A stretch of DNA of 64,000 bases from an uncultured Bdellovibrio sp. (GCA_963932905.1 CAWVRN010000014.1:1-64000); one strand, 5' to 3'; positions 1 to 9,160 are shown, counted from the first letter of the stretch. Numbers and translations are program-made. The notes: generated by a model from the sequence alone, not told the origin.

Positions 1-54
1 ACTTGATTTGACGATATTTTACTTGGCCTTAGCCGCAGGCTAAGGGACCAGTTC
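1..54. repeat. REP/MITE-like palindromic repeat copy (CCTTAGCC-GCA-GGCTAAGG hairpin followed by GACCAGTTC)
   Basis: 1..54 matches 43065..43118 with 2 mismatches; perfect 8-bp hairpin at 27..45. Confidence 0.85.
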
Positions 55-101
55 AAAACAACTACATGTACCTGGGTTCAAGACGGCAACGCGAATCCAG
101 A

Positions 102-1154
102 TTAATTTTTTAGTCCCTTAGGTGGATGAATTAAAATTCCAACTGGGACGGACATTAATGTTTGGTATTTTAACGTGACCGATTTTCCTGGTTCTAAAGA
201 CTCAACCAAAACTTTAGTGATACTATCCGTAAATAGTCCATTTTCAGCGCGTACCAAATATACGCCGCCGTCCTTCAAATAGACGATGTTCTTGGGAAGC
301 GTTCGATCACTAGATTGAAACACAGTTTCAATATTTTCAATAGGCACACTTTTATCATCACCAAACATAATTCCCTTGTTTGCCGACTTGATAGCATCGA
401 AATCGGTGGTTCCATGACTAGCATCGATTTCTACGATGTAACCGGCGCCGCTTTTTGAACCTTTTACGCTTAAACTTGTTTCTGATTTTTGAGCAAAATC
501 TAAAGGAACTTCATTGTTCGTGATTCCCGCACGCAATGTGACGTGTCGGACCACAGATAGCGACACGGGTTCGTCATCCCGCTTGGTTTGGATGGATTCT
601 AGCACGCTTTGGCCGCTGACTAGGACCGTCGTTTTATGCCGCAGGTTCATGCGTACATGAATGAAATCTTTAAATTCTGAAATCAGATACACATCGGTTT
701 CTAATTGACCTTCAGCATTAGTTACTTCGGCACTGAAACCTTCAGAGCCATTAATTTTGATATCGGAATATTTACGTGCTGGGTATTTGGCTTTTAGATA
801 CACTTTAAGATCTGTTAATGTTGGCCCCGCATTTCCTTCGATTTTTGCTTTAGTGACCGTCAGTTTTGATCCGTCATAGTTACTGATTTCTAACCCATTA
901 GCTAGCTCTGTTTTCTTCCATCCAAATGGTACAGAAATAAATAATTGCGTACCAGGAATAGGTTGTAGTGACAATTTGTAGACAAGAAAACGATTGGCTT
1001 TAACTTTGTTAGGTCCCACATCGACGCCGCCGTCTTGGGGCTTGCTATTTCCACTTGGATCCAGAATATCGATCGATTCACTTGGATTTACATTGTGTGT
1101 TGGCGAACAGGCCATTAGCACAGACGTAATAATAGCGGTTAAAATCAGTTTCAT
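102..1154 (-). CDS. hypothetical lipoprotein
   Basis: 350-aa ORF with lipobox-like N-terminus MKLILTAIITSVLMA-C; start overlaps the stop of the upstream regulator (ATGA). Confidence 0.75.
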   Translation of the reverse strand: MKLILTAIITSVLMACSPTHNVNPSESIDILDPSGNSKPQDGGVDVGPNKVKANRFLVYKLSLQPIPGTQLFISVPFGWKKTELANGLEISNYDGSKLTVTKAKIEGNAGPTLTDLKVYLKAKYPARKYSDIKINGSEGFSAEVTNAEGQLETDVYLISEFKDFIHVRMNLRHKTTVLVSGQSVLESIQTKRDDEPVSLSVVRHVTLRAGITNNEVPLDFAQKSETSLSVKGSKSGAGYIVEIDASHGTTDFDAIKSANKGIMFGDDKSVPIENIETVFQSSDRTLPKNIVYLKDGGVYLVRAENGLFTDSITKVLVESLEPGKSVTLKYQTLMSVPVGILIHPPKGLKN

Positions 1155-1987
1155 TGGACGTCTCCTGTGGTCAGCGCAAACAATTGGATGTTCATTTGAT
1201 AAACATCGTCTGGATTTGTGTACGCACTTGCGATTTGATTTATTTCTTTTCTGAAAGCTCGTATTTTATCTTGAATTTCTGACAATTTCTCTTTTGGGAT
1301 AGAAATGGTCGCGCTATTAACTTCTCTAGTTGAGGGGTGGTTGTGTCTCAAGGCATCGCTAGCCAGGCGATTCATCGATTGATGATACTCATAAACCGCC
1401 ATCGAACGTGTTTCGTCCCAAACACTCAAAGCACCCGAATTTTTCTGTTTATACCCCTTCTCGGCGTCGGCTTGGATCATATCTAAACGCAAAAGGGTTT
1501 GCAGTGCTTCGCTAGCTTGTGCTGACGTAATGCGATTTCCTAGTCGTTTAGCGATCCAGCTAGGACTGGCTTTAAAATTTCGTGTATCAATTAGAACGTA
1601 TATAGCGACAACGTACCACTTGGAGAGAAAGTCGAATTTTTCTTTCTCTAAGTTATGAACTTTCGCAAGTGTAGATTTAATAGAAATGATTTCAGCAAAG
1701 TACTTTGATTTCATTTCTAAATCTTCTGTTTGTGAAAATAGAACCATCATTTCAAAAAACTTGGCCTCTTTTTGAGAGAGTTTTAACGCATCAACAAATT
1801 TTGGTATTGTTTTCAGTGAAAGGTTTCGTGCACCATTAATAATCATCAATAAGTAAGACGGGGAACTGATACCGGCCTGCTTGGCAAAAACACGATGACT
1901 ATAATTAGGATTGTTTGATTTTTTGTGAGCATAATAATCCGATAGGTATAATCGGTAATCATTATATTCAAAAATATGTTTCGACAT
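1151..1987 (-). CDS. TIGR02147/DUF4423-family putative HTH regulator
   Basis: IFEYNDYRxYL...YSHRVFAKQAGISSPSYL...G.RNLS, WYVVAI, C-terminal VYQMNIQLFALT; likely start ATG 1987 (ORF extends to 2035). Confidence 0.85.
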   Translation of the reverse strand: MSKHIFEYNDYRLYLSDYYAHKKSNNPNYSHRVFAKQAGISSPSYLLMIINGARNLSLKTIPKFVDALKLSQKEAKFFEMMVLFSQTEDLEMKSKYFAEIISIKSTLAKVHNLEKEKFDFLSKWYVVAIYVLIDTRNFKASPSWIAKRLGNRITSAQASEALQTLLRLDMIQADAEKGYKQKNSGALSVWDETRSMAVYEYHQSMNRLASDALRHNHPSTREVNSATISIPKEKLSEIQDKIRAFRKEINQIASAYTNPDDVYQMNIQLFALTTGDVQ

Positions 1988-2076
1988 ATTCTTATTTTTG
2001 CTCAATCTAAAATTTCCTTGCTGTTCACAAAACATGAATGAACTCTAAAACTATCGCTACTGTGGTGTCTAGCAAA

Positions 2077-2244
2077 GTGCACGCAAAATGTATACATTTG
2101 TGTACACCACACCGACTGGGTGAAAACTTACAATTTAAGTAGAATCAACAGCTTAGCGGAAACAAGGCGTACACAGGCTCTGTAAGGTTTTCATGGAAAC
2201 AGCGATTTTTGAGCTTTTTCTAACGTGTACACTTTTGTGGACAT
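2077..2244. promoter_or_regulatory. divergent promoter region with repeated palindromic GTRYAC/GTGTACAC boxes
   Basis: GTGCAC 2077, AAATGTATACATTT 2086-2099, GTGTACAC 2100 and 2225, GCGTACAC 2167, GTGGACAT 2237. Confidence 0.45.
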
Positions 2245-2367
2245 CTTGTTTGTCCAATCTTCAAAAATAATTGGTCTCAAAAAAATTCTTTGTTACTTCC
2301 TCTTTGAACTTGAGACTTCGTTTTATTGGGAGCGAGTCCAAGAAAACCAACAAACATAGGAGATAAC

Positions 2368-2706
2368 ATGAACAAGAAAACAATAGCTGCCTTAGGTGCT
2401 TTTATCGCATCCCTTGTCGGGGCTGCTCAAGCGGAAACAGTAGTTCAAGCATTAGGAAATGCGGGCGTGCAAGGTATGGCTCGCGATGGTCGCATGGAAC
2501 TGAGTGTGGATCAGCTTTACACTGTAACCCAAGCCGCTCAACGGGCAGGTCTAGAGATTTCAGTAGTCGGTACTTCACCGAAAAAATTGGGTACGATCCA
2601 AATCCAAATTGGGGAAGTGAATAAACTACACCCGACAGGAATCAAAGTTTTTACTCCAAAAACAATAAAAGAAATTAGTGCTTTCGGTCCAATAGTCGCT
2701 AACTAA
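2368..2706 (+). CDS. small secreted protein, putative RiPP precursor/substrate ending in Asn
   Basis: AGGAG RBS before ATG 2368; Sec signal MNKKTIAALGAFIASLVGAAQA; C-terminus SAFGPIVAN; first gene of the operon, upstream of the ThiF enzyme. Confidence 0.7.
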   Translation: MNKKTIAALGAFIASLVGAAQAETVVQALGNAGVQGMARDGRMELSVDQLYTVTQAAQRAGLEISVVGTSPKKLGTIQIQIGEVNKLHPTGIKVFTPKTIKEISAFGPIVAN

Positions 2707-2766
2707 ACGGAACGTTTACAAAGTGTGGGCGTTTAATCGGCTGAATCCCTTTATGCGCCCTTTTAT

Positions 2767-3843
2767 ATGGAGTTATTTATGCAGAAAATAGAAAAATACT
2801 GCCTTAACCGGGGATTCAGTTTCAGATACGACGAAGCCAAGGAGACACTATTCGTTGGTTACAATCCACCAATTGCAAAATCAATTCAAGATTCAGGCGG
2901 TTTCCTTAAGGAAATGGTTGAAGTTTTTCAAAAGCCGACAACACTCGGTCAAGCTACTTATGATTTGTCAAAAAATCATTCCCTTGCTGATGTGACTTTG
3001 GGAATAGAAATGGCGGTGAAAAATTACTTCATCTTGCCGTATAAAAAGACAAGTCATAAAAAACTAGATCGTCACGATTTGTACGCGCGCTATTGTGATG
3101 TTAAAGAATCGCAAGAAAAACTTTTGAAAAATAAAAAAATTGCAATTGTTGGAGTCGGTGGCATTGGATCAAACTGTGCTATTTTAGCTAGTTCTGCCGG
3201 TATTAAAAGTCTTGTTTTAATTGATGCGGATGAAATCGAGCTATCCAATTTGACTCGCACTACGCTGTTTGCAGAGACAGATTTGGGCAAGAAAAAGGTT
3301 CAGGCCGCTAAAGATCAAATTAATCATTTACGTTCAGGTGTGAAAATTAAAACCAGTCTAAAACCTTTTACGGATGATAATTTGAATTTTTATTCAAAGT
3401 TATTAAAAGATATCGATGCGCTTATATTATGCGCGGACAGAGCTGAAGTTCATCAAACGGCATTAAAGATTTCTAAACAGCTAGGAATTCCATACATCAA
3501 TGCGGGTTATGCTGAATCGAATGGAGTTGTTGGTCCACTGGTCATACCAGGTAAAACATCGTGCTTTAATTGCGAACGTTTATCTCGTAAAGGAAATCAC
3601 CTCACTCTGAGAGAAATGAATCCATTTCTGCAAGCAGCTTCATTTGGTCCTCTGAATTATATGGTTTCGGGTTTGGCGATCGCAGAGATATTGAAACATT
3701 TCTGGGGACACACTTCGGCCTTAGAAAATGAACGCTGGATATTCGATAGCATCAATTTAGGTGTTACCAAAGAAAAATTAACTATTCATCCAAATTGCGA
3801 TCACCATCATAACGTGAGCTATCGCATTTCTAGCAAGGATTAA
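2767..3843 (+). CDS. ThiF/MccB-like (E1 family) adenylyltransferase with N-terminal RRE-sized extension
   Basis: IVGVGGIGS, DADEIELSNLTR, KVQAAK, YINAGY, VGPLVIPGKTSCFNC; about 100-aa N-terminal extension; start may be ATG 2779 (GGAG RBS). Confidence 0.9.
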   Translation: MELFMQKIEKYCLNRGFSFRYDEAKETLFVGYNPPIAKSIQDSGGFLKEMVEVFQKPTTLGQATYDLSKNHSLADVTLGIEMAVKNYFILPYKKTSHKKLDRHDLYARYCDVKESQEKLLKNKKIAIVGVGGIGSNCAILASSAGIKSLVLIDADEIELSNLTRTTLFAETDLGKKKVQAAKDQINHLRSGVKIKTSLKPFTDDNLNFYSKLLKDIDALILCADRAEVHQTALKISKQLGIPYINAGYAESNGVVGPLVIPGKTSCFNCERLSRKGNHLTLREMNPFLQAASFGPLNYMVSGLAIAEILKHFWGHTSALENERWIFDSINLGVTKEKLTIHPNCDHHHNVSYRISSKD

Positions 3844-3846
3844 AAA

Positions 3847-5049
3847 ATGATCGAAACGTTATTGCAAATTAAAGATCAGTATTTGTCTGAACGTGCTTAT
3901 TCGGGGCCATTTTATGTAATGGATAGCTCGATGATAGAATCCCGCGCTACCGAATTCAAGAAAAGTTTTTCACTCTTTCCCAGTGTGTCCTTTTTCTATT
4001 CCTATAAAACGAATTCGTTAAAAGATGTAGCTCAAAAAATGAAGTCTTTAGGCTATGGCGCCCAAGTTGTATCGGGTGATGAACTAGAATGCGCACTGCT
4101 CGACGGACATTTGGGAAAAAATATTGTTTTTGATGGTCCCGTAAAGAAGGAAAGTGAAATTAGGTTGGCCATTGAAAATGGCGTTACTATTCAGCTAGAC
4201 AGTTTTTTTGAGTGGCAAGAAATCAAACGACTTTTTCCAGACAGACTCAAAGAAATTAAATTAGGTTTACGATTGGCGCATGTTTTTGAGAAAAATCAAA
4301 TTTCTCGCTTCGGTTTCAACTCTGAAGAATTTCATTTAGTTTACGAAGATATTTATAAATCAGGGGCGGTTGTGTCTGGCGTTCATTTTCATGTCGGATC
4401 AAATCTGACCCATATTGAAAGCTACTTAATTGAGCTAGATCGTTACGTCGATGTCATCAAGAAGGTCGTTAGAGGAAAAACGGATGGAATGCCTTGGATA
4501 AATTTGGGGGGCGGTTTCCCCGCGCTCTCAAATAGGGAAGGCAAAGCTTTGCCTGATTTTACTCAGTGGAGTTTACGCTTGCTGACTCATTTGACGAGCA
4601 AAGGATTGAATCCAAACTCATTCACGTTAGCCTTAGAGCCGGGAAGAAATTTCGTAGAGGATGCCGGTTATCTTTTTTGTCAGGTGGTCACTTTAAAGCA
4701 TCGGGCCGGCGAAAATATACTAGTACTAGATACTGGCCTCAATCACGTGCATTCATTCCACAGTTGGCAGCATCGAATATTTCCACTGCAACATAAAACT
4801 TCAGGTGCTGAAAAGATCTATAAGGTGTACGGATCGAACTATTTTGAAAGCGATTTGTTTCATTTAGGATTACCGGTCGTTGATGCGGAACCTGGTGATT
4901 GGTTTGTGATCACCAACGTCGGTGGTTACGACATTCCGTCCATCAATCCGTGGACACGCAAGCATCCGGCAATATACTTTTATGAAAACAATAGGCTCTG
5001 CGTCTGTCGTCGCGGTTCAAGTGAATTGTCGTCTCGGGTGAGTCTGTGA
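3847..5049 (+). CDS. PLP-dependent decarboxylase, fold type III (LysA/ornithine decarboxylase-like)
   Basis: YSYKTNS (PLP lysine), DGPVK, SRFG, HFHVGS, NLGGGF, LEPGR, VGGY. Confidence 0.88.
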   Translation: MIETLLQIKDQYLSERAYSGPFYVMDSSMIESRATEFKKSFSLFPSVSFFYSYKTNSLKDVAQKMKSLGYGAQVVSGDELECALLDGHLGKNIVFDGPVKKESEIRLAIENGVTIQLDSFFEWQEIKRLFPDRLKEIKLGLRLAHVFEKNQISRFGFNSEEFHLVYEDIYKSGAVVSGVHFHVGSNLTHIESYLIELDRYVDVIKKVVRGKTDGMPWINLGGGFPALSNREGKALPDFTQWSLRLLTHLTSKGLNPNSFTLALEPGRNFVEDAGYLFCQVVTLKHRAGENILVLDTGLNHVHSFHSWQHRIFPLQHKTSGAEKIYKVYGSNYFESDLFHLGLPVVDAEPGDWFVITNVGGYDIPSINPWTRKHPAIYFYENNRLCVCRRGSSELSSRVSL

Positions 5050-5513
5050 GAGTTTTACTTTATAGTGTACTTATTATCTGGCTCGGCAGCAGTTTGGTCT
5101 GCACGGGATTAAATAAAAATATTTGGCCATTTCCTTCGCTTAACGTATTTAGCGAGTTACCTAAAGACAAATCCGGCCTTTGGGTCGTCAGAATCGCGAC
5201 TGATTCAAAAACATATGAACTTGATCCCGGCAATATTTTACCTATGGATTTTTTTGTGGCGCGCGCATTTGTAGGTGACGTGGCACGGTATCAAGACGAA
5301 AAAAAACTGCAGGCCTTACTAGATTACACTTATGACCATCTCAAAGAATCCCGCACAGGTTTTGACGAGCAATGGGGAAAACCCAAAATTTTTCCAGGTC
5401 AAAAAACGAATATTCAAATTGTTTTGAAAGTCTCAAAGACAGAGCGAACGCATAAATACGAAACGGTTCCACTTGGCGAGTATGTCATAGGAGAGAAAAC
5501 CTATGCCCAATAG
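5046..5513 (+). CDS. membrane-anchored hypothetical protein (SdpA-like / HTTM partner)
   Basis: single N-terminal hydrophobic segment followed by WPFPSLNVFS; GTGA overlap with the decarboxylase stop; overlaps the HTTM gene. Confidence 0.55.
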   Translation: MRVLLYSVLIIWLGSSLVCTGLNKNIWPFPSLNVFSELPKDKSGLWVVRIATDSKTYELDPGNILPMDFFVARAFVGDVARYQDEKKLQALLDYTYDHLKESRTGFDEQWGKPKIFPGQKTNIQIVLKVSKTERTHKYETVPLGEYVIGEKTYAQ

Positions 5514-6300
5514 CATACGTAGCGCAATCGTTAGAACTCTTTCCCTGTTTTTTGTCATATGGTCTATTTTTGGTCCTATTGATTCTAGTTTGATAGAATT
5601 TAAAACCATTCTTTTTGGGCCTTCGCTATTAAACGGAATTTCGTTTCTATTTTTTTTAAAGTTTTGTTTAATATTTTCTTCTATCGCTCTGGTGTTGCAG
5701 CCTAGGAGCTTGTGGTTGGGCCTCATTCAGCTTATTGCTGGTAGCTTGTTGTTATATGTTGGTTTGGTTTCTAACTCCGTTTGGAATTACAACACCCATA
5801 TCATTGTCATTGCTCTGTTAACTTATATAACAGGTCTTAGGGGTTCTGAGGCGGGTGAAAAGGACCTAGTCACTTGTGTTTCTTTAGTGTTCGCGACAAT
5901 TTATATTCAAGCGGCGATTTCAAAAGTGGCCGTATCAGGACTCGATTGGATGAACACTGGTTTAACTATTTATCGACACTTACTGAAGTTTAATCCTACT
6001 TTGTCTGCGATCTTGGATGGTAATCCGATACTATTCCAAATGGCAGGGTGGTTGACCGTGATCGGCGAACTAGTTTTAGGAAGTTTTTTTGCTATTCCGA
6101 AAACGCGAAAACTGGCTGCTATGCTATCGATCTCATTTCATATCATGCTCTGGTTTGCTTTTAATATCAGCTTTTGGCATTTGTGGATTTTCTATCCAGC
6201 GCTTTACTTTTCACAGAATAGGAACTCGTTTCTAGCTCGTCTTAATATCCAAGACTCCATTTGTAAAAGTCGGATGGGTCTGACCTCAAAACAGCTATAA
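5503..6300 (+). CDS. HTTM-domain membrane protein (vitamin K-dependent carboxylase/SdpB-like)
   Basis: multi-TM; WNYNTH, IYIQAAISKV, WMNTG, GELVLG, FHIML motifs. Confidence 0.78.
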   Translation: MPNSIRSAIVRTLSLFFVIWSIFGPIDSSLIEFKTILFGPSLLNGISFLFFLKFCLIFSSIALVLQPRSLWLGLIQLIAGSLLLYVGLVSNSVWNYNTHIIVIALLTYITGLRGSEAGEKDLVTCVSLVFATIYIQAAISKVAVSGLDWMNTGLTIYRHLLKFNPTLSAILDGNPILFQMAGWLTVIGELVLGSFFAIPKTRKLAAMLSISFHIMLWFAFNISFWHLWIFYPALYFSQNRNSFLARLNIQDSICKSRMGLTSKQL

Positions 6301-6375
6301 CGGAAATAGACAATGCGATACAAGGAATCCCTTTGCACCCAGAGCGTGGGTCTAACCAAACTCCATCGGGTGCAA
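6275..6375. repeat. TGGGTCTRACC repeat pair and TTGCACCC/GGGTGCAA hairpin at the operon end
   Basis: TGGGTCTGACC 6275, TGGGTCTAACC 6347; inverted 8-mer 6333-6340/6368-6375. Confidence 0.4.
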
Positions 6376-6395
6376 CCTGATTGTTTTGTTATAAA

Positions 6396-6647
6396 CTATA
6401 GTCCAGAGTCAGCTAATTTAGCTTTTAATTCTGTCACTCGGCGGCCCGTTATTTCAGATAAACAAGCTGCGATTTCAATTCCGTGAATAGATCCACCGCG
6501 AGAGTCGTAGTTGTCAAATTCACATTCAGCATCACGTAAAATAACCCACGCACGTTGGGCTTTTCTTAAGTAGGCTATTTTTTCATTTGCCACAGATTTT
6601 GGTTCGCCGCCGGTGCGAATTTGTTTGATCAATTGTTGGTAGGCCTT
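6396..6647 (-). pseudogene. 5'-truncated lysozyme inhibitor LprI (DUF1311)-like fragment
   Basis: KAYQQLIK...LRKAQRAWVILRDAEC...GGS...AACL..IT.RR..EL; upstream in-frame stops, no signal peptide. Confidence 0.7.
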
Positions 6648-6881
6648 GGGTGGGAGGTTGTTTATTGGATAAAGTTATCATTGGCCGGGCGATCGATGCA
6701 GTGTTTAGAATTTGGACACTAGAATTTACAATTTCAAAGTGTGAATAGGGGGCAATTGTGGCTGTTGCCTGAAATTTGTTTAAAAATAGTGAATGGAAGA
6801 CAGGTTTAAATTTTAAACCTTGTGATTGTCACTGAGAGTACGTATAAATCGGCGCACCACAAATAGATAAGGATTGAGTCA

Positions 6882-7466
6882 ATGGAAGAAGTTTCTAATG
6901 GTGGCCTAGAACAGCTACACTGCGACGAATGTAAAACAGGCCACAGTATAGAGCAGGTATTGGGCCTGTGCGATCTTAAACTTACATTTCCGAATAACTG
7001 GGCTTCTTTCACTTGCACCGCGTGTGAGGAAGAAAACGATGTCGAAATTAGCGAAAATGAAATAAAAGTTGGTATCATTGCTGGTAAGCCCCCAGAGTTC
7101 GAAGTTCTCCATTCTGCACCAATGGGCGACATCAAATTTAAAGTTATCGATGAAAAAGAAAAACAAGGTCTTTTGGTCACTCTGTCAGATAATCGTGTTT
7201 TATTTGTTCGAACGGCTAGTATTTTGGTCAAGGCGACACTGGTGTCCGTGAATGCAAAAGAAATAGTTTTTGATTTTGGATTTGTTCATAAGGTAGTTGG
7301 GCGCCTTTCTATTAGACGTTCCGACAGAGTGATTCGTTTGCTTTCGGAGGGGGGCGATCCTGAAGAGCTGAGTTTTTTTTATCCGACGGTGGGACACGCT
7401 CTCATTCAGCAGTGTGCCAATTTGACCACGGAAACTAAAGAATTTAGATTTATGATGAAGACCTAA
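6882..7466 (+). CDS. hypothetical protein with two CxxC motifs
   Basis: 194-aa ORF; CDEC and CTAC. Confidence 0.55.
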   Translation: MEEVSNGGLEQLHCDECKTGHSIEQVLGLCDLKLTFPNNWASFTCTACEEENDVEISENEIKVGIIAGKPPEFEVLHSAPMGDIKFKVIDEKEKQGLLVTLSDNRVLFVRTASILVKATLVSVNAKEIVFDFGFVHKVVGRLSIRRSDRVIRLLSEGGDPEELSFFYPTVGHALIQQCANLTTETKEFRFMMKT

Positions 7467-7500
7467 CCACTAAAAAAATGGCTCTAAGTTAATATTTTTC

Positions 7501-7529
7501 TTGAACTCACTAGCATTAATAGCTACAGT
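7501..7529 (+). promoter_or_regulatory. sigma70-type promoter for tRNA-Leu
   Basis: TTGAAC-17 nt-TACAGT just upstream of the tRNA. Confidence 0.55.
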
Positions 7530-7543
7530 TTAAACCTTCTGCT

Positions 7544-7630
7544 GGCCTTGTGGTGGAATTGGTAGACGCGCTGGACTCAAAATCCAGTGCCCGCAAGGGC
7601 GTGGGAGTTCGATTCTCCCCGGGGCCACCA
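7544..7630 (+). tRNA. tRNA-Leu(CAA)
   Basis: GGCCTTG/CGGGGCC acceptor stem, CTGGA-CTCAAAA-TCCAG anticodon arm, long variable arm, GGGAG-TTCGATT-CTCCC, encoded CCA. Confidence 0.97.
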
Positions 7631-7765
7631 TTTTTTGAACTCCGCATTCTCATTTCGCGAAAATCGCCTAACTTGACTAATTTTGGTCGCGAAAATTCTG
7701 ATGTTCTCTTGGTCTATTCTCCTAGCCTTTAGATTAATTTAAAAAAGGCCGACTCAAGGTAACAG

Positions 7766-8416
7766 ATGAAGTTGATATATGCACTAGTCCGAATCGCAAT
7801 TTTTAATTTTGTATTGTCGCTACTTTTAACGCCTTTTTGGGCTATTGGCTATGTACTTTTCTTAAGAAGTTACGGTAGTCTTTGTATAGACATCCTTTCG
7901 ATTGATCCTCTTAATTGGTTTACAGATTTGATTGCGGGACCAGAAGTTTGGAGCGTCACTTGCTCCAACTACGAATGTTTTCAAGTTTATGGCGAAGCTG
8001 TGCTTTCCAGGATAAGTGCCATCACGATCTCAATTGGTATGTCAAATAGACTGTATGAATGGTTGAAAGGTCGTCCGCTAATTAAACTAGATTTGATCGG
8101 TTTTTATGTTAAAGGCCCCTTCTATTTGGCCCAATACTGTAGTCTGCTTTTATCTTTATTGGTGCTAATAGAAATGCGATGGGTGTCGGCATTTGTGTTG
8201 TTGTTAATATCGTTTGGAGCAAAAAAAATGCTAAGAAATGCAGAGTTTGCCAAATATTTTATAACACTTGTTTCGGTTACACTAAGTGCCATTGATCCAG
8301 CGCTTTTAAAGGATTCAGATTTTGGAAATAGTTTTGATAGTTTGCAGGAACGGAAAAGCAATTCATCGGAGAATAGAACGAAAAGTGATGAACTAAATAA
8401 AGATAAAGTGGGCTGA
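7766..8416 (+). CDS. hypothetical membrane protein
   Basis: 216-aa ORF with several hydrophobic segments. Confidence 0.6.
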   Translation: MKLIYALVRIAIFNFVLSLLLTPFWAIGYVLFLRSYGSLCIDILSIDPLNWFTDLIAGPEVWSVTCSNYECFQVYGEAVLSRISAITISIGMSNRLYEWLKGRPLIKLDLIGFYVKGPFYLAQYCSLLLSLLVLIEMRWVSAFVLLLISFGAKKMLRNAEFAKYFITLVSVTLSAIDPALLKDSDFGNSFDSLQERKSNSSENRTKSDELNKDKVG

Positions 8417-8527
8417 TCACTGTCTCATCTCAGGAGTTGACTACCAAACAACTACTTTAAAAATATTTTTTCGACCTAGTATTTTATATTCTGTCAACGG
8501 GTGGTTGCTGCCGCTTGTAAAATAGTC

Positions 8528-8914
8528 TTAATCTGCAGCTATCATGTGCTTTTCAAGCCACGTCGCAATTTCGTCTATTTCGATTTTTTTCTTGATAACC
8601 CGTTCGATAAGAAATATTTCTCCGTAGTCAGCGTTCACTTTCAAGCGATAGCCGTTCATTCTTAAAAAGATAGCCGTAGCAGCAAAAGCGACTCGCTTAT
8701 TCCCGTCGATGAATGAATGATTTTGACATAAACTTTGTAATAGAGCAGCGGCTTCAAGTGATAGAGTTTTGTAGTACCCTGTTTGAGGGCGCATTAGGGC
8801 ACTTTCTAGCAGTCCCAAATCACGAACGCCGTCTTTGCCCCCAAATCGCTCTATTAACCGAGTGTGAAGTTCCAAAGTTTCGGCAAGGGTTGGGTAAAGC
8901 CGAACTTTTTTCAT
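8528..8914 (-). CDS. doc: Doc (death-on-curing)/Fic family toxin
   Basis: GVRDLGLLESAL.RP and HSFIDGNKR motif. Confidence 0.92.
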   Translation of the reverse strand: MKKVRLYPTLAETLELHTRLIERFGGKDGVRDLGLLESALMRPQTGYYKTLSLEAAALLQSLCQNHSFIDGNKRVAFAATAIFLRMNGYRLKVNADYGEIFLIERVIKKKIEIDEIATWLEKHMIAAD

Positions 8915-9123
8915 TTGGCTAAACGCTGCAAAAGTTCTTCGTGATCTTTCAAAACCTCATCCATTGCATTACGAAATGCAGGTCTAACTTTTGAACGTTG
9001 AAGATATTCTGCAACCGCTTCAGAAACGACCCTAGAAATACTTCGATCCGTCTCCTTTACATATGACTTTAAATCTTTCAGGACTTTTTCATCGATCTGG
9101 GTGGCAAATTTAATGGATTTCAT
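8911..9123 (-). CDS. ribbon-helix-helix antitoxin
   Basis: KFATQIDEKVLKDLK...SISRVVSEAVAEYL; C-terminal HEELLQRLAK; ATGA overlap with the toxin. Confidence 0.8.
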   Translation of the reverse strand: MKSIKFATQIDEKVLKDLKSYVKETDRSISRVVSEAVAEYLQRSKVRPAFRNAMDEVLKDHEELLQRLAK

Positions 9124-9130
9124 ATTACAT

Positions 9131-9160
9131 ATAGTATCATGAAAATTCATGAAATATCAA
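9131..9160 (-). promoter_or_regulatory. TA promoter with TCATGA-N4-TCATGA operator between -35 and -10
   Basis: minus strand TTGATA-18 nt-TACTAT-7 nt-ATG; TCATGA at 9137 and 9147. Confidence 0.55.

Follow-up and report, generated by a model that had tools for sequence, protein, structure and literature searches.

A putative microcin C-type operon of undescribed architecture, with a signal peptide-bearing candidate precursor and an HTTM-fold membrane protein, in an uncultured Bdellovibrio sp.

Introduction

Microcin C is the textbook Trojan-horse peptide-nucleotide antibiotic, and its known precursors leave the cell through dedicated pumps (PMC6495379, PMC4010828; these and all other papers are cited here from partial texts). 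MccB forms an acyl-adenylate and then a succinimide on the C-terminal Asn of the precursor MccA, which is held in an N-terminal "peptide clamp" of the enzyme; MccD moves the 3-amino-3-carboxypropyl group of S-adenosylmethionine onto the peptide-nucleotide, and the N-terminal domain of MccE then decarboxylates it (PMC12250964). Known MccA precursors are 7 to 8 aa long, or 17 to 56 aa in a minor MccB clade (PMC6495379), and the cluster of Synechococcus CC9605 has a 56-aa MccA, mccD, separate genes for the two MccE domains, no MccC, and ABC transporters (PMC4010828). Another exported toxin, SdpC of Bacillus subtilis, carries a secretion signal; once exported, it is processed to the 42-aa SDP toxin in a step that requires SdpA and SdpB (PMC6818787). 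Here, we describe a five-gene locus at positions 2368 to 6300 of a 64,000-nucleotide stretch of DNA from an uncultured Bdellovibrio sp. (GCA_963932905.1 CAWVRN010000014.1:1-64000; the whole stretch is hereafter called the window), whose chemistry is probably microcin C-like and whose precursor type, export route, and membrane module, an HTTM-fold protein and a 155-aa protein here called p4, are probably new. A sequence-only reading of the window had proposed that the locus joins microcin C-type cytoplasmic chemistry to SdpAB/HTTM-type membrane processing of a Sec-exported substrate, in a combination that it did not recognize as a described system.

Results

All five open reading frames (ORFs) of the locus lie on the plus strand and are co-oriented. 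The gene for a 112-aa small protein (2368 to 2706, with AGGAG 7 nt before its ATG) is followed by that for a ThiF-domain protein, which spans 2767 to 3843 as an ORF and more likely 2779 to 3843, with the start MQKIEKY behind GGAG, as in the orthologue of the sister genome G006. Next come the genes for a fold-III pyridoxal phosphate (PLP) decarboxylase (3847 to 5049), p4 (5046 to 5513), and a 265-aa polytopic membrane protein with an HTTM-type fold (5503 to 6300). From the ThiF gene to the last gene, the first pair is separated by 3 nt and the next two pairs overlap by 4 and 11 nt, which agrees with the tight coupling of the last four genes claimed in the sequence-only reading, and both overlaps are kept in G006. 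Comparison with G006 gives pS values of 0.57 to 0.86 and pN values of 0.04 to 0.26 across the five genes. Because synonymous changes are far in excess, the five ORFs are real genes and not chance ORFs, and they are under purifying selection. The dN/dS ratios are 0.039 for the small protein (pS, 0.57; pN, 0.040), 0.044 for the ThiF protein, and 0.046 for the decarboxylase; the ratio is given for these three genes only, as dS is saturated for the p4 and HTTM genes.

The ThiF protein combines a Pfam ThiF domain (148.8 bits) with an N-terminal extension of about 100 aa, and its sequence places it in the MccB family, not among the housekeeping MoeB/ThiF enzymes. Its best sequence matches in the PDB are three MccB sequences (E values of 3.4e-31 to 4.4e-31), ahead of MoeB (2e-16) and ThiF (1.2e-14), and it is 31% identical to the E. 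coli plasmid MccB (E value, 3e-36). In phylogenetic analyses, the enzyme falls inside the MccB clade, which is split from the MoeB outgroup with 100/100 support, so the MccB-like identity proposed from the sequence alone holds against the alternative of a housekeeping grouping. All 25 NCBIfam ThiF/MoeB equivalog models shown score under their cutoffs, the best being TIGR02356 with 102.3 bits against a cutoff of 275.25. The window's genome (G000) holds two further ThiF-family genes. Among 41 related genomes, G000 included, close homologues of the window enzyme are present only in G006 (same genus, 82% identity) and G030 (same order, 34%), the other matches being generic; within the genus, an MccB-family gene occurs in 2 of the 10 genomes searched, counting G000.

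The 112-aa protein encoded directly upstream, in the position of MccA, is a candidate precursor that ends in Asn and bears a Sec-type signal peptide. Read by rule of thumb, its N terminus shows a basic n-region and a hydrophobic stretch of ~15 residues, with AQA preceding the mature part; its hydropathy profile contains no 19-residue segment at transmembrane (TM) strength. The family is small: 5.8 billion proteins contained four clusters of 87% to 94% identity, and searching 1.84 billion representatives with a profile gave two sequences, P0003 (one of the four clusters) and P0005, a relative at 50% identity. Within the order, 2 of 384 genomes carry a member, with two further weak matches at E values of about 3e-4, and a metagenome scan returned one locus, which is 100% identical to the window. 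All six sequences of the window family end in Asn, and the residues before it vary (GPIVAN, GPMVTN, TDLVVN, and GKMVVN). The AlphaFold2 model of the protein (pLDDT, 72.9) has a small alpha/beta domain, and residues 107 to 112 have pLDDT values of <50; the C-terminal tail appears flexible in this model, so it could reach an active site. Searches with the fold returned no PDB match at an E value of ≤0.001, the nearest structures being generic ferredoxin-like domains such as those of PulM and PilO, and an Atlas search with the protein gave no usable feature match. A ThiS/MoaD-type reading of the small protein was dropped, since the fold is not a beta-grasp, and matches to GARS_N/PurD (19 to 24 bits, far under the cutoffs) were regarded as noise.

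A second variant of the precursor gene was encountered in one public sequencing run (X1), where a contig corresponding to window positions 2385 to 2487 shows 17 listed differences that fall in a single frame, spaced by multiples of three bases. The upstream loose end of this contig resembles the G006 form. Because of this variant contig, we conclude that two related strains coexist in the X1 sample.

For 11 MccB-like genes, the preceding 700 nt were scanned for Asn-ending ORFs (for L031, there was no preceding sequence to scan), and the 7-codon mccA of E. coli, encoding MRTGNAN, was recovered as a control. In the window, the 112-aa gene is the only Asn-ending ORF in this region with a ribosome-binding site (RBS), and the 72-nt spacer before mccB contains no RBS-preceded Asn-ending ORF. 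RBS-preceded 7-codon ORFs lie upstream of mccB in G030 (MNSTARN) and in four Chlamydiota loci (MNTITKN, MNIITMN, and, twice, MNTISKN); L037 and L058 yielded no convincing candidate within the 700 nt. The G030 locus (L014, 8344 to 8440) consists of the MNSTARN ORF with an AGGAGG RBS and a hairpin with a T-run, and is followed by genes for MccB, a major facilitator superfamily (MFS) transporter, and a GNAT acetyltransferase. On these gene contents, both architectures, the canonical small mcc locus and the secreted-precursor locus, exist in this order.

Related loci were collected by an MccB alignment scan of genome contigs (50 loci) and by p4-profile searches over 401 Myxococcota and 401 Bdellovibrionota genomes, in which 8 to 12 first-look candidates were scored per genome and misses are possible. 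Under the same scoring limit, p4 was found in 2 of the 401 genomes of each phylum, in 1 of 301 genomes of the order of Sorangium, and in 1 of 19 of its genus. In the window/G006 lineage, the 112-aa precursor (ending in GPIVAN) is accompanied by MccB, MccD (G006 only), the decarboxylase, p4, and the HTTM protein. Sorangium sp. So ce176 has a 64-aa precursor (RMEVPN), an MccB-like ThiF protein (32% identical to the query alignment), a class I methyltransferase with only 26% identity to MccD (E value, 6e-10), an S66 peptidase, a 177-aa p4 homologue (E value of 8e-9 with the window p4), and an HTTM homologue (5e-24). The Myxococcota genome G971 encodes a 97-aa precursor (AAIVVRN), a ThiF protein (E value of 1e-18 with that of the window), an MccD homologue (41% identical to E. 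coli MccD; E value, 2.5e-72), a decarboxylase (35% identical to that of the window; E value, 2e-67), an S66 peptidase, a second methyltransferase, a PNP_UDP_1 nucleosidase-type protein, p4, and an HTTM protein. G308, from another family of Bdellovibrionota, encodes a 91-aa precursor (LLRLVSN), a ThiF protein (35% identical to that of the window; E value, 4e-40), p4 (5e-7), an HTTM protein (5e-21), and an S66 peptidase. In Sorangium, G971, and G308, the p4 homologue adjoins the HTTM gene, and near mccB of G971 and G308, no RBS-preceded Asn-ending ORF other than the long one is found.

Judged from these sequences, the core common to the four lineages is an Asn-ending signal-peptide protein, MccB, an N-anchored p4 of 136 to 177 aa, and an HTTM-fold protein. 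Of the recurrence of all five genes that the sequence-only reading had envisaged, the part concerning these four components stands; the ORFs listed for the Sorangium and G308 clusters include no decarboxylase, which is, on this distribution, accessory and not core. BLASTP comparisons among the four precursor families gave no match, apart from a 16-residue match in the signal region and one match with an E value of 0.08. By the same rule-of-thumb reading as above, the n-region is basic in all four families, the hydrophobic core spans ~15 residues, and positions -3/-1 are occupied by small residues (AQA, AQA, AFA, and VNA); one member of the Sorangium family bears the UniRef name "Secreted protein." The Sorangium family is Asn-terminal in three of three members, one of which has an indel directly before the Asn. 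In G000, 207 of 2,790 ORFs of at least 200 aa (7.4%) end in Asn; given this background rate, it is very unlikely that all four families end in Asn by chance. The S66 peptidases in the Sorangium, G971, and G308 clusters are 34% to 38% identical to E. coli MccF (E values of 2e-49 to 5e-74), which is an immunity peptidase. No MccC-type pump is present among the listed ORFs in any of the four lineages, and no Pfam match to an MFS or ABC exporter was found among the nine window ORFs scanned (102 to 7466).

Several further features of the related loci are recorded here. The precursor-mccB spacer of Sorangium (L034, 6438 to 6571) lies in a folded 151-nt stretch (6430 to 6580; -79.4 kcal/mol; z score, -5.9) with a perfect 17-bp hairpin just before the mccB start, which may be an attenuator or a terminator analogous to the mccA-mccB terminator. 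The PNP_UDP_1 gene of G971 (L090, 9361 to 10200, minus strand) adjoins the gene for the MccD homologue and could encode a dedicated helper; in E. coli, a methylthioadenosine (MTA) nucleosidase relieves the product inhibition of MccD. In G308 (L093), a NUDIX hydrolase gene (565 to 969, minus strand) stands directly after the S66 peptidase gene, and a divergent class I methyltransferase gene (5074 to 5733, plus strand) lies upstream of the cluster; each may be an extra immunity or tailoring gene.

The decarboxylase has both Pfam domains of its family (Orn_Arg_deC_N, PF02784, 111.9 bits; PF00278, 34.6 bits) and is 33% identical to the N-terminal half of E. coli MccE over 365 columns (E value, 7e-46); it is only 25% identical to the other fold-III decarboxylase paralogue of G000. 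From these similarities, it is a stand-alone fold-III PLP enzyme resembling the N-terminal domain of MccE, as had been suggested from the sequence alone. In a tblastn search against plasmids, it matched E. coli plasmids at a 589-aa "GNAT family" gene, and the region concerned (L077) encodes a ThiF protein, an MFS transporter, a class I methyltransferase, the 589-aa protein, and an S66 peptidase, which correspond to mccB-C-D-E-F. The motifs YSYK, HVGSN, and EPGR are kept in the window enzyme. In the motif N-C-F-E-[SC]-D, whose Cys we take to be the catalytic proton donor in fold-III decarboxylases, Tyr is found where G006 and E. coli MccE have Cys, and this Tyr is present in the window only.

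The G006 locus is split over two contig ends, with C45 encoding the small protein, ThiF, and the N-terminal 167 aa of a methyltransferase and C83 carrying the last 72 aa of an ORF, followed by the decarboxylase, p4, and HTTM. The methyltransferase fragment, which lies between mccB and the decarboxylase gene, is 46% identical to E. coli MccD (E value, 6e-56). In the window, comparison with G006 and bridging contigs places a junction without mccD at 3820 to 3850 (plus strand). Here, the ThiF frame is 7 codons longer than that of G006, and this tail and the short spacer after it align to the 3' end of the G006 mccD and its spacer, so the junction looks like a clean mccD deletion. G000, which is 98.6% complete, contains no MccD homologue, the best match being a generic methyltransferase domain (E value, 1.1e-7). 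In three of four public runs, from three studies, contigs bridge the ThiF/decarboxylase junction, with no insert or joints reported (pieces at 3710 to 4019 in X1, 3743 to 4080 in X6, and 3712 to 3965 in X7; the X5 piece stops at 3823). Therefore, the mccD-less form is a real, circulating arrangement. Because mccD is missing and the motif Cys is replaced by Tyr, the aminopropyl step is probably not carried out by the window strain. Despite both changes, selection on the decarboxylase, as judged from its dN/dS ratio, is not visibly relaxed.

p4 has one N-terminal TM segment (residues 1 to 22) in hydropathy analysis, and it matched no Pfam family at an E value of ≤0.1 and no NCBIfam family. The designation "SdpA-like" given to it in the sequence-only reading is not borne out, since the SdpA family (PF17418) has no match in G000 at an E value of ≤1, while the B. 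subtilis control matches. A p4 profile search found 20 clusters in 5.8 billion proteins, with the common motifs WPF, PGNVLPxEFFRA, and FDExW. An Atlas search with p4 returned clusters of hypothetical proteins of similar size, mostly from Actinomycetota, with scores of 0.91 to 0.92 and TM values of 0.52 to 0.55, which are to be taken as leads only. The 265-aa protein has several TM segments by hydropathy. The HTTM label proposed for it fares better at the level of fold than at that of the family cutoff: HTTM (PF05090) scores of 22.8 bits for the window protein and 23.9 bits for that of G006 are both under the Pfam gathering cutoff of 27.7, the Sorangium homologue scores 28.6 bits, above the cutoff, and the G971 and G308 homologues give no match. 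Structural comparison of the 265-aa protein gave matches to the membrane domain of the vitamin K-dependent gamma-carboxylase (GGCX), consistent with a shared fold. The above-cutoff homologue and these structural matches support an HTTM fold as modelled. No GGCX was retrieved from the PDB with a sequence profile of five HTTM homologues; an invariant Lys141 is thus unaligned to GGCX residues.

The surroundings of the operon include a divergent gene (1151 to 2035, minus strand) encoding a helix-turn-helix regulator (NCBIfam TIGR02147, 244 bits; Pfam DUF4423, 129 bits), which is syntenic in G006 with 89% identity and which, from its position only, is a candidate operon regulator. The 332-nt divergent intergenic region contains two copies of an 18-nt TGTAYAC-rich repeat (2089 to 2106 and 2226 to 2243, unstranded), found by a repeat search, which are arranged as a direct repeat and also form inverted pairs. 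Both copies are conserved in the G006 intergenic region while the flanks diverge; the repeats are operator-like and may be operators of the TIGR02147 regulator. Between the precursor gene and mccB, the minimum free energy structure contains a weak hairpin followed by UUUUAU (2727 to 2760, plus strand), which is a possible analogue of the mccA-mccB terminator. A consensus scan located a terminator-like hairpin with a 7-pair stem and a T-run behind the operon (6365 to 6391, plus strand), which is a pattern match only. A truncated-looking LprI-like ORF of 78 aa (6396 to 6632, minus strand), whose match is limited to the second half of the profile, separates the operon from a gene for a 194-aa protein with CxxC pairs (6882 to 7466, plus strand; weak zf-DNL match of 20 bits), which is syntenic in G006 with 77% identity. 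The placement of the locus near a tRNA-Leu gene, noted in the sequence-only reading, is correct, as tRNA-Leu(CAA) lies at 7544 to 7630, and an Rfam scan of positions 1 to 9000 found no other RNA. Just past this tRNA, a Fic/Doc-family gene (8528 to 9150, minus strand; Pfam Fic, 52.8 bits) and the 79-aa ORF upstream of it, which matches DUF6364 weakly, overlap and look like a Doc-type toxin-antitoxin pair.

Discussion

The locus resembles E. coli mccABCDEF in having an MccB-family gene directly downstream of a gene for an Asn-ending product and an MccE N-terminal-type decarboxylase, as well as, in its relatives, MccD homologues (G006 and G971) and MccF-like peptidases (three related clusters). 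Unlike that system, the window has a 112-aa precursor with a Sec-type signal in place of a 7-aa peptide, lacks the MccC MFS pump, the MccE C-terminal acetyltransferase, MccD, and MccF, and adds two membrane proteins, p4 and HTTM, that have no mcc counterpart. The sdpABC and yitPOM operons of B. subtilis likewise encode a pro-protein exported by Sec together with a small protein and a polytopic membrane protein of the HTTM family, if SdpB is, as we take it to be, an HTTM protein; unlike here, they include no MccB, MccD/E, or MccF, and neither does p4 match SdpA nor the precursor SdpC. The resemblance to SdpABC is thus one of architecture and functional analogy only, not of homology. GGCX shares the fold of its membrane domain with the HTTM-type protein, but the identity is only 9% to 11%, the window protein lacks the lumenal substrate-binding domain, and carboxylase chemistry is not implied by the match. 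The long-precursor clusters of Synechococcus CC9605 and Yersinia pseudotuberculosis share a long Asn-terminated precursor with the locus, and the former also provides a precedent for a split MccE and for the lack of MccC (PMC4010828). In contrast to those clusters, for which the available texts report no signal peptide, HTTM, or p4 and assign export to ABC transporters, the precursors here reach 91 to 112 aa and, according to the model, carry a folded domain.

No mention of a signal peptide, HTTM, or Bdellovibrio was found in the portions of PMC6495379, PMC4010828, and PMC12250964 that were available. A literature search whose coverage excluded supplementary tables and most subscription journals linked no HTTM protein with MccB or ThiF, and a search for MccB precursors with a signal peptide gave, among the papers listed, none on this architecture by title or abstract; the reviews matched for MccB in Myxococcota were unrelated by title. 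The novelty suggested in the sequence-only reading is therefore upheld to the extent that no description was found in the literature searched; the locus is nevertheless best filed within the microcin C family, with the split MccE and 56-aa precursor of Synechococcus as its neighbours (PMC4010828). As for the proposed union of microcin C chemistry with membrane processing, the MccB family membership and the recurrence speak for it, whereas the aminopropyl step is probably not present here and the SdpAB likeness is architectural.

The homologies, gene order, recurrence, and invariant terminal Asn are established by comparison; beyond them, we infer that MccB acts on the small protein, that this protein is exported, that the product is of nucleotide nature, and that p4 and HTTM act on it. 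We consider it rather probable that the operon is a microcin C-type (peptidyl-nucleotide) biosynthetic system of undescribed architecture, working as follows. The 112-aa product would stand in for MccA, and before or during post-translational Sec export, the cytoplasmic MccB would form an isoasparaginyl/aspartamidyl-nucleotide phosphoramidate from the C-terminal Asn of that product, in the way that E. coli MccB modifies MRTGNAN. The signal peptide would route the modified protein through Sec, replacing the MccC pump; Sec export of the conjugate would explain the absence of an MccC-type pump. p4 and HTTM would act on the conjugate at the membrane or in the periplasm, most likely maturing it to a shorter, importable C-terminal peptide-nucleotide, or alternatively serving in immunity or further modification. 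Maturation is the most economical of these roles because a product of 60 to 90 residues hardly fits peptide importers; peptide adenylates longer than about 20 aa are no longer taken up through YejABEF (PMC4010828). In the ancestral operon, MccD and the MccE-like decarboxylase would have aminopropylated the phosphoramidate, as those of G006 and G971 still could, and in the window, with mccD deleted, the expected product would be the undecorated conjugate, with the decarboxylase probably idle. By analogy with microcin C, an aspartamidyl-nucleotide product that inhibits aspartyl-tRNA synthetase (AspRS) is a predicted trait of the class, and the MccF-like peptidases in three lineages argue for a toxic aspartyl-nucleotide product.

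Other explanations were weighed against this proposal. MccB might activate the C-terminal Asn while the end product carries no nucleotide warhead, the activated or succinimide C terminus being cyclized, amidated, or attached by HTTM to a lipid or envelope acceptor to give a signalling or structural protein. We regard this as unlikely, since the MccF-like peptidases in three of the four lineages and the presence of MccD and the decarboxylase in G006 and G971, with the functions that these proteins have in E. coli, fit only a phosphoramidate-nucleotide. It is also conceivable that two unrelated modules merely adjoin, namely, a decaying mcc remnant that has lost mccA, mccC, and mccD and a unit of secreted protein, p4, and HTTM, whose small protein would be no MccB substrate. 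The deletion of mccD, the Cys-to-Tyr change in a conserved motif of the decarboxylase, the presence of neither a pump nor an immunity gene in the window cluster, and the occurrence of p4-like hypothetical-protein clusters in Actinomycetota and other phyla in the Atlas search would all be expected then. What makes it quite improbable is the recurrence of this juxtaposition in four lineages, whose precursors are unrelated and invariably Asn-terminal, the strong purifying selection on MccB and the small gene, and the overlap or tight spacing of the genes, which speaks for a single operon.

The hydrophobic N terminus could instead be a leader for the N-terminal clamp of MccB, with exit by another route, possibly through p4/HTTM as an exporter. 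MccB-family enzymes do bind their substrates through an N-terminal clamp resembling a RiPP recognition element (RRE) (PMC12250964), and no dedicated exporter was seen among the window ORFs scanned. All four precursor families, as read by rule of thumb, show canonical signal-peptidase I features, however, and a Sorangium protein is labelled as secreted in UniRef. HTTM proteins are, to our knowledge, not known as transporters, and we rank this explanation lower still. That the ThiF gene encodes a housekeeping MoeB/ThiF activator of a sulfur carrier has next to no probability: it would account for the Pfam ThiF match and the weak NCBIfam ThiF and MoeB matches, but the NCBIfam scores are far under the cutoffs, two other ThiF-family genes are present in the genome, and the enzyme is closest to MccB and present in only 2 of the 10 genomes of the genus.

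Several points weigh against the microcin C-type proposal itself. The window/G006 lineage has no recognizable immunity gene, which the proposal leaves unexplained: neither an S66 peptidase nor an MccE C-terminal domain was found in the window cluster or in G006, and the best S66 match in G000 has an E value of 1.5e-4, with none in G006. The window copy may be partly decayed, as judged from the loss of mccD, with no homologue elsewhere in G000, and from the Tyr that it alone carries in the decarboxylase motif. For a cytoplasmic enzyme to act on a Sec substrate, modification must be assumed to precede translocation. In E. coli, MccA variants longer than about 11 aa are poorly made and exported (PMC6495379). 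The five "secreted-precursor" enzymes are not united in the MccB tree, the best tree needing three changes; a single origin of these enzymes remains compatible with the tree. p4 and HTTM may also occur without MccB, possibly so in the more distant p4 relatives P0019 to P0026. In addition, the hairpin at 2727 to 2760 is not significant (z score, -0.30), and the terminator scan made no call there.

A more specific proposal, which we offer tentatively and hold to be doubtful at present, is that predatory-type bacteria (Bdellovibrionota and Myxococcota) make a protein-sized, Sec-exported pro-antibiotic in which a folded carrier domain bears an MccB-installed aspartamidyl-nucleotide warhead at its C terminus and HTTM, a bacterial relative of GGCX, performs a new extracytoplasmic maturation or modification together with its anchored partner p4. 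If true, peptide-nucleotide antibiotic biosynthesis would have a second branch, coupled to export, and a bacterial HTTM/p4 pair would have its first assigned partner chemistry. The locus would extend MccB chemistry from peptides to exported proteins, with signal-peptide partners of 64 to 112 residues, and it leads one to ask how a C-terminal modification made in the cytoplasm would be coordinated with export through Sec. MccB is already a tool for protein C-terminal ligation (PMC11118369, PMC13255007), and natural MccBs that accept folded proteins could be useful enzymes. The association also gives a concrete substrate context for bacterial HTTM proteins and the p4 family. The occurrence of these clusters in Bdellovibrionota and Myxococcota hints, speculatively, at a role in predation or competition.

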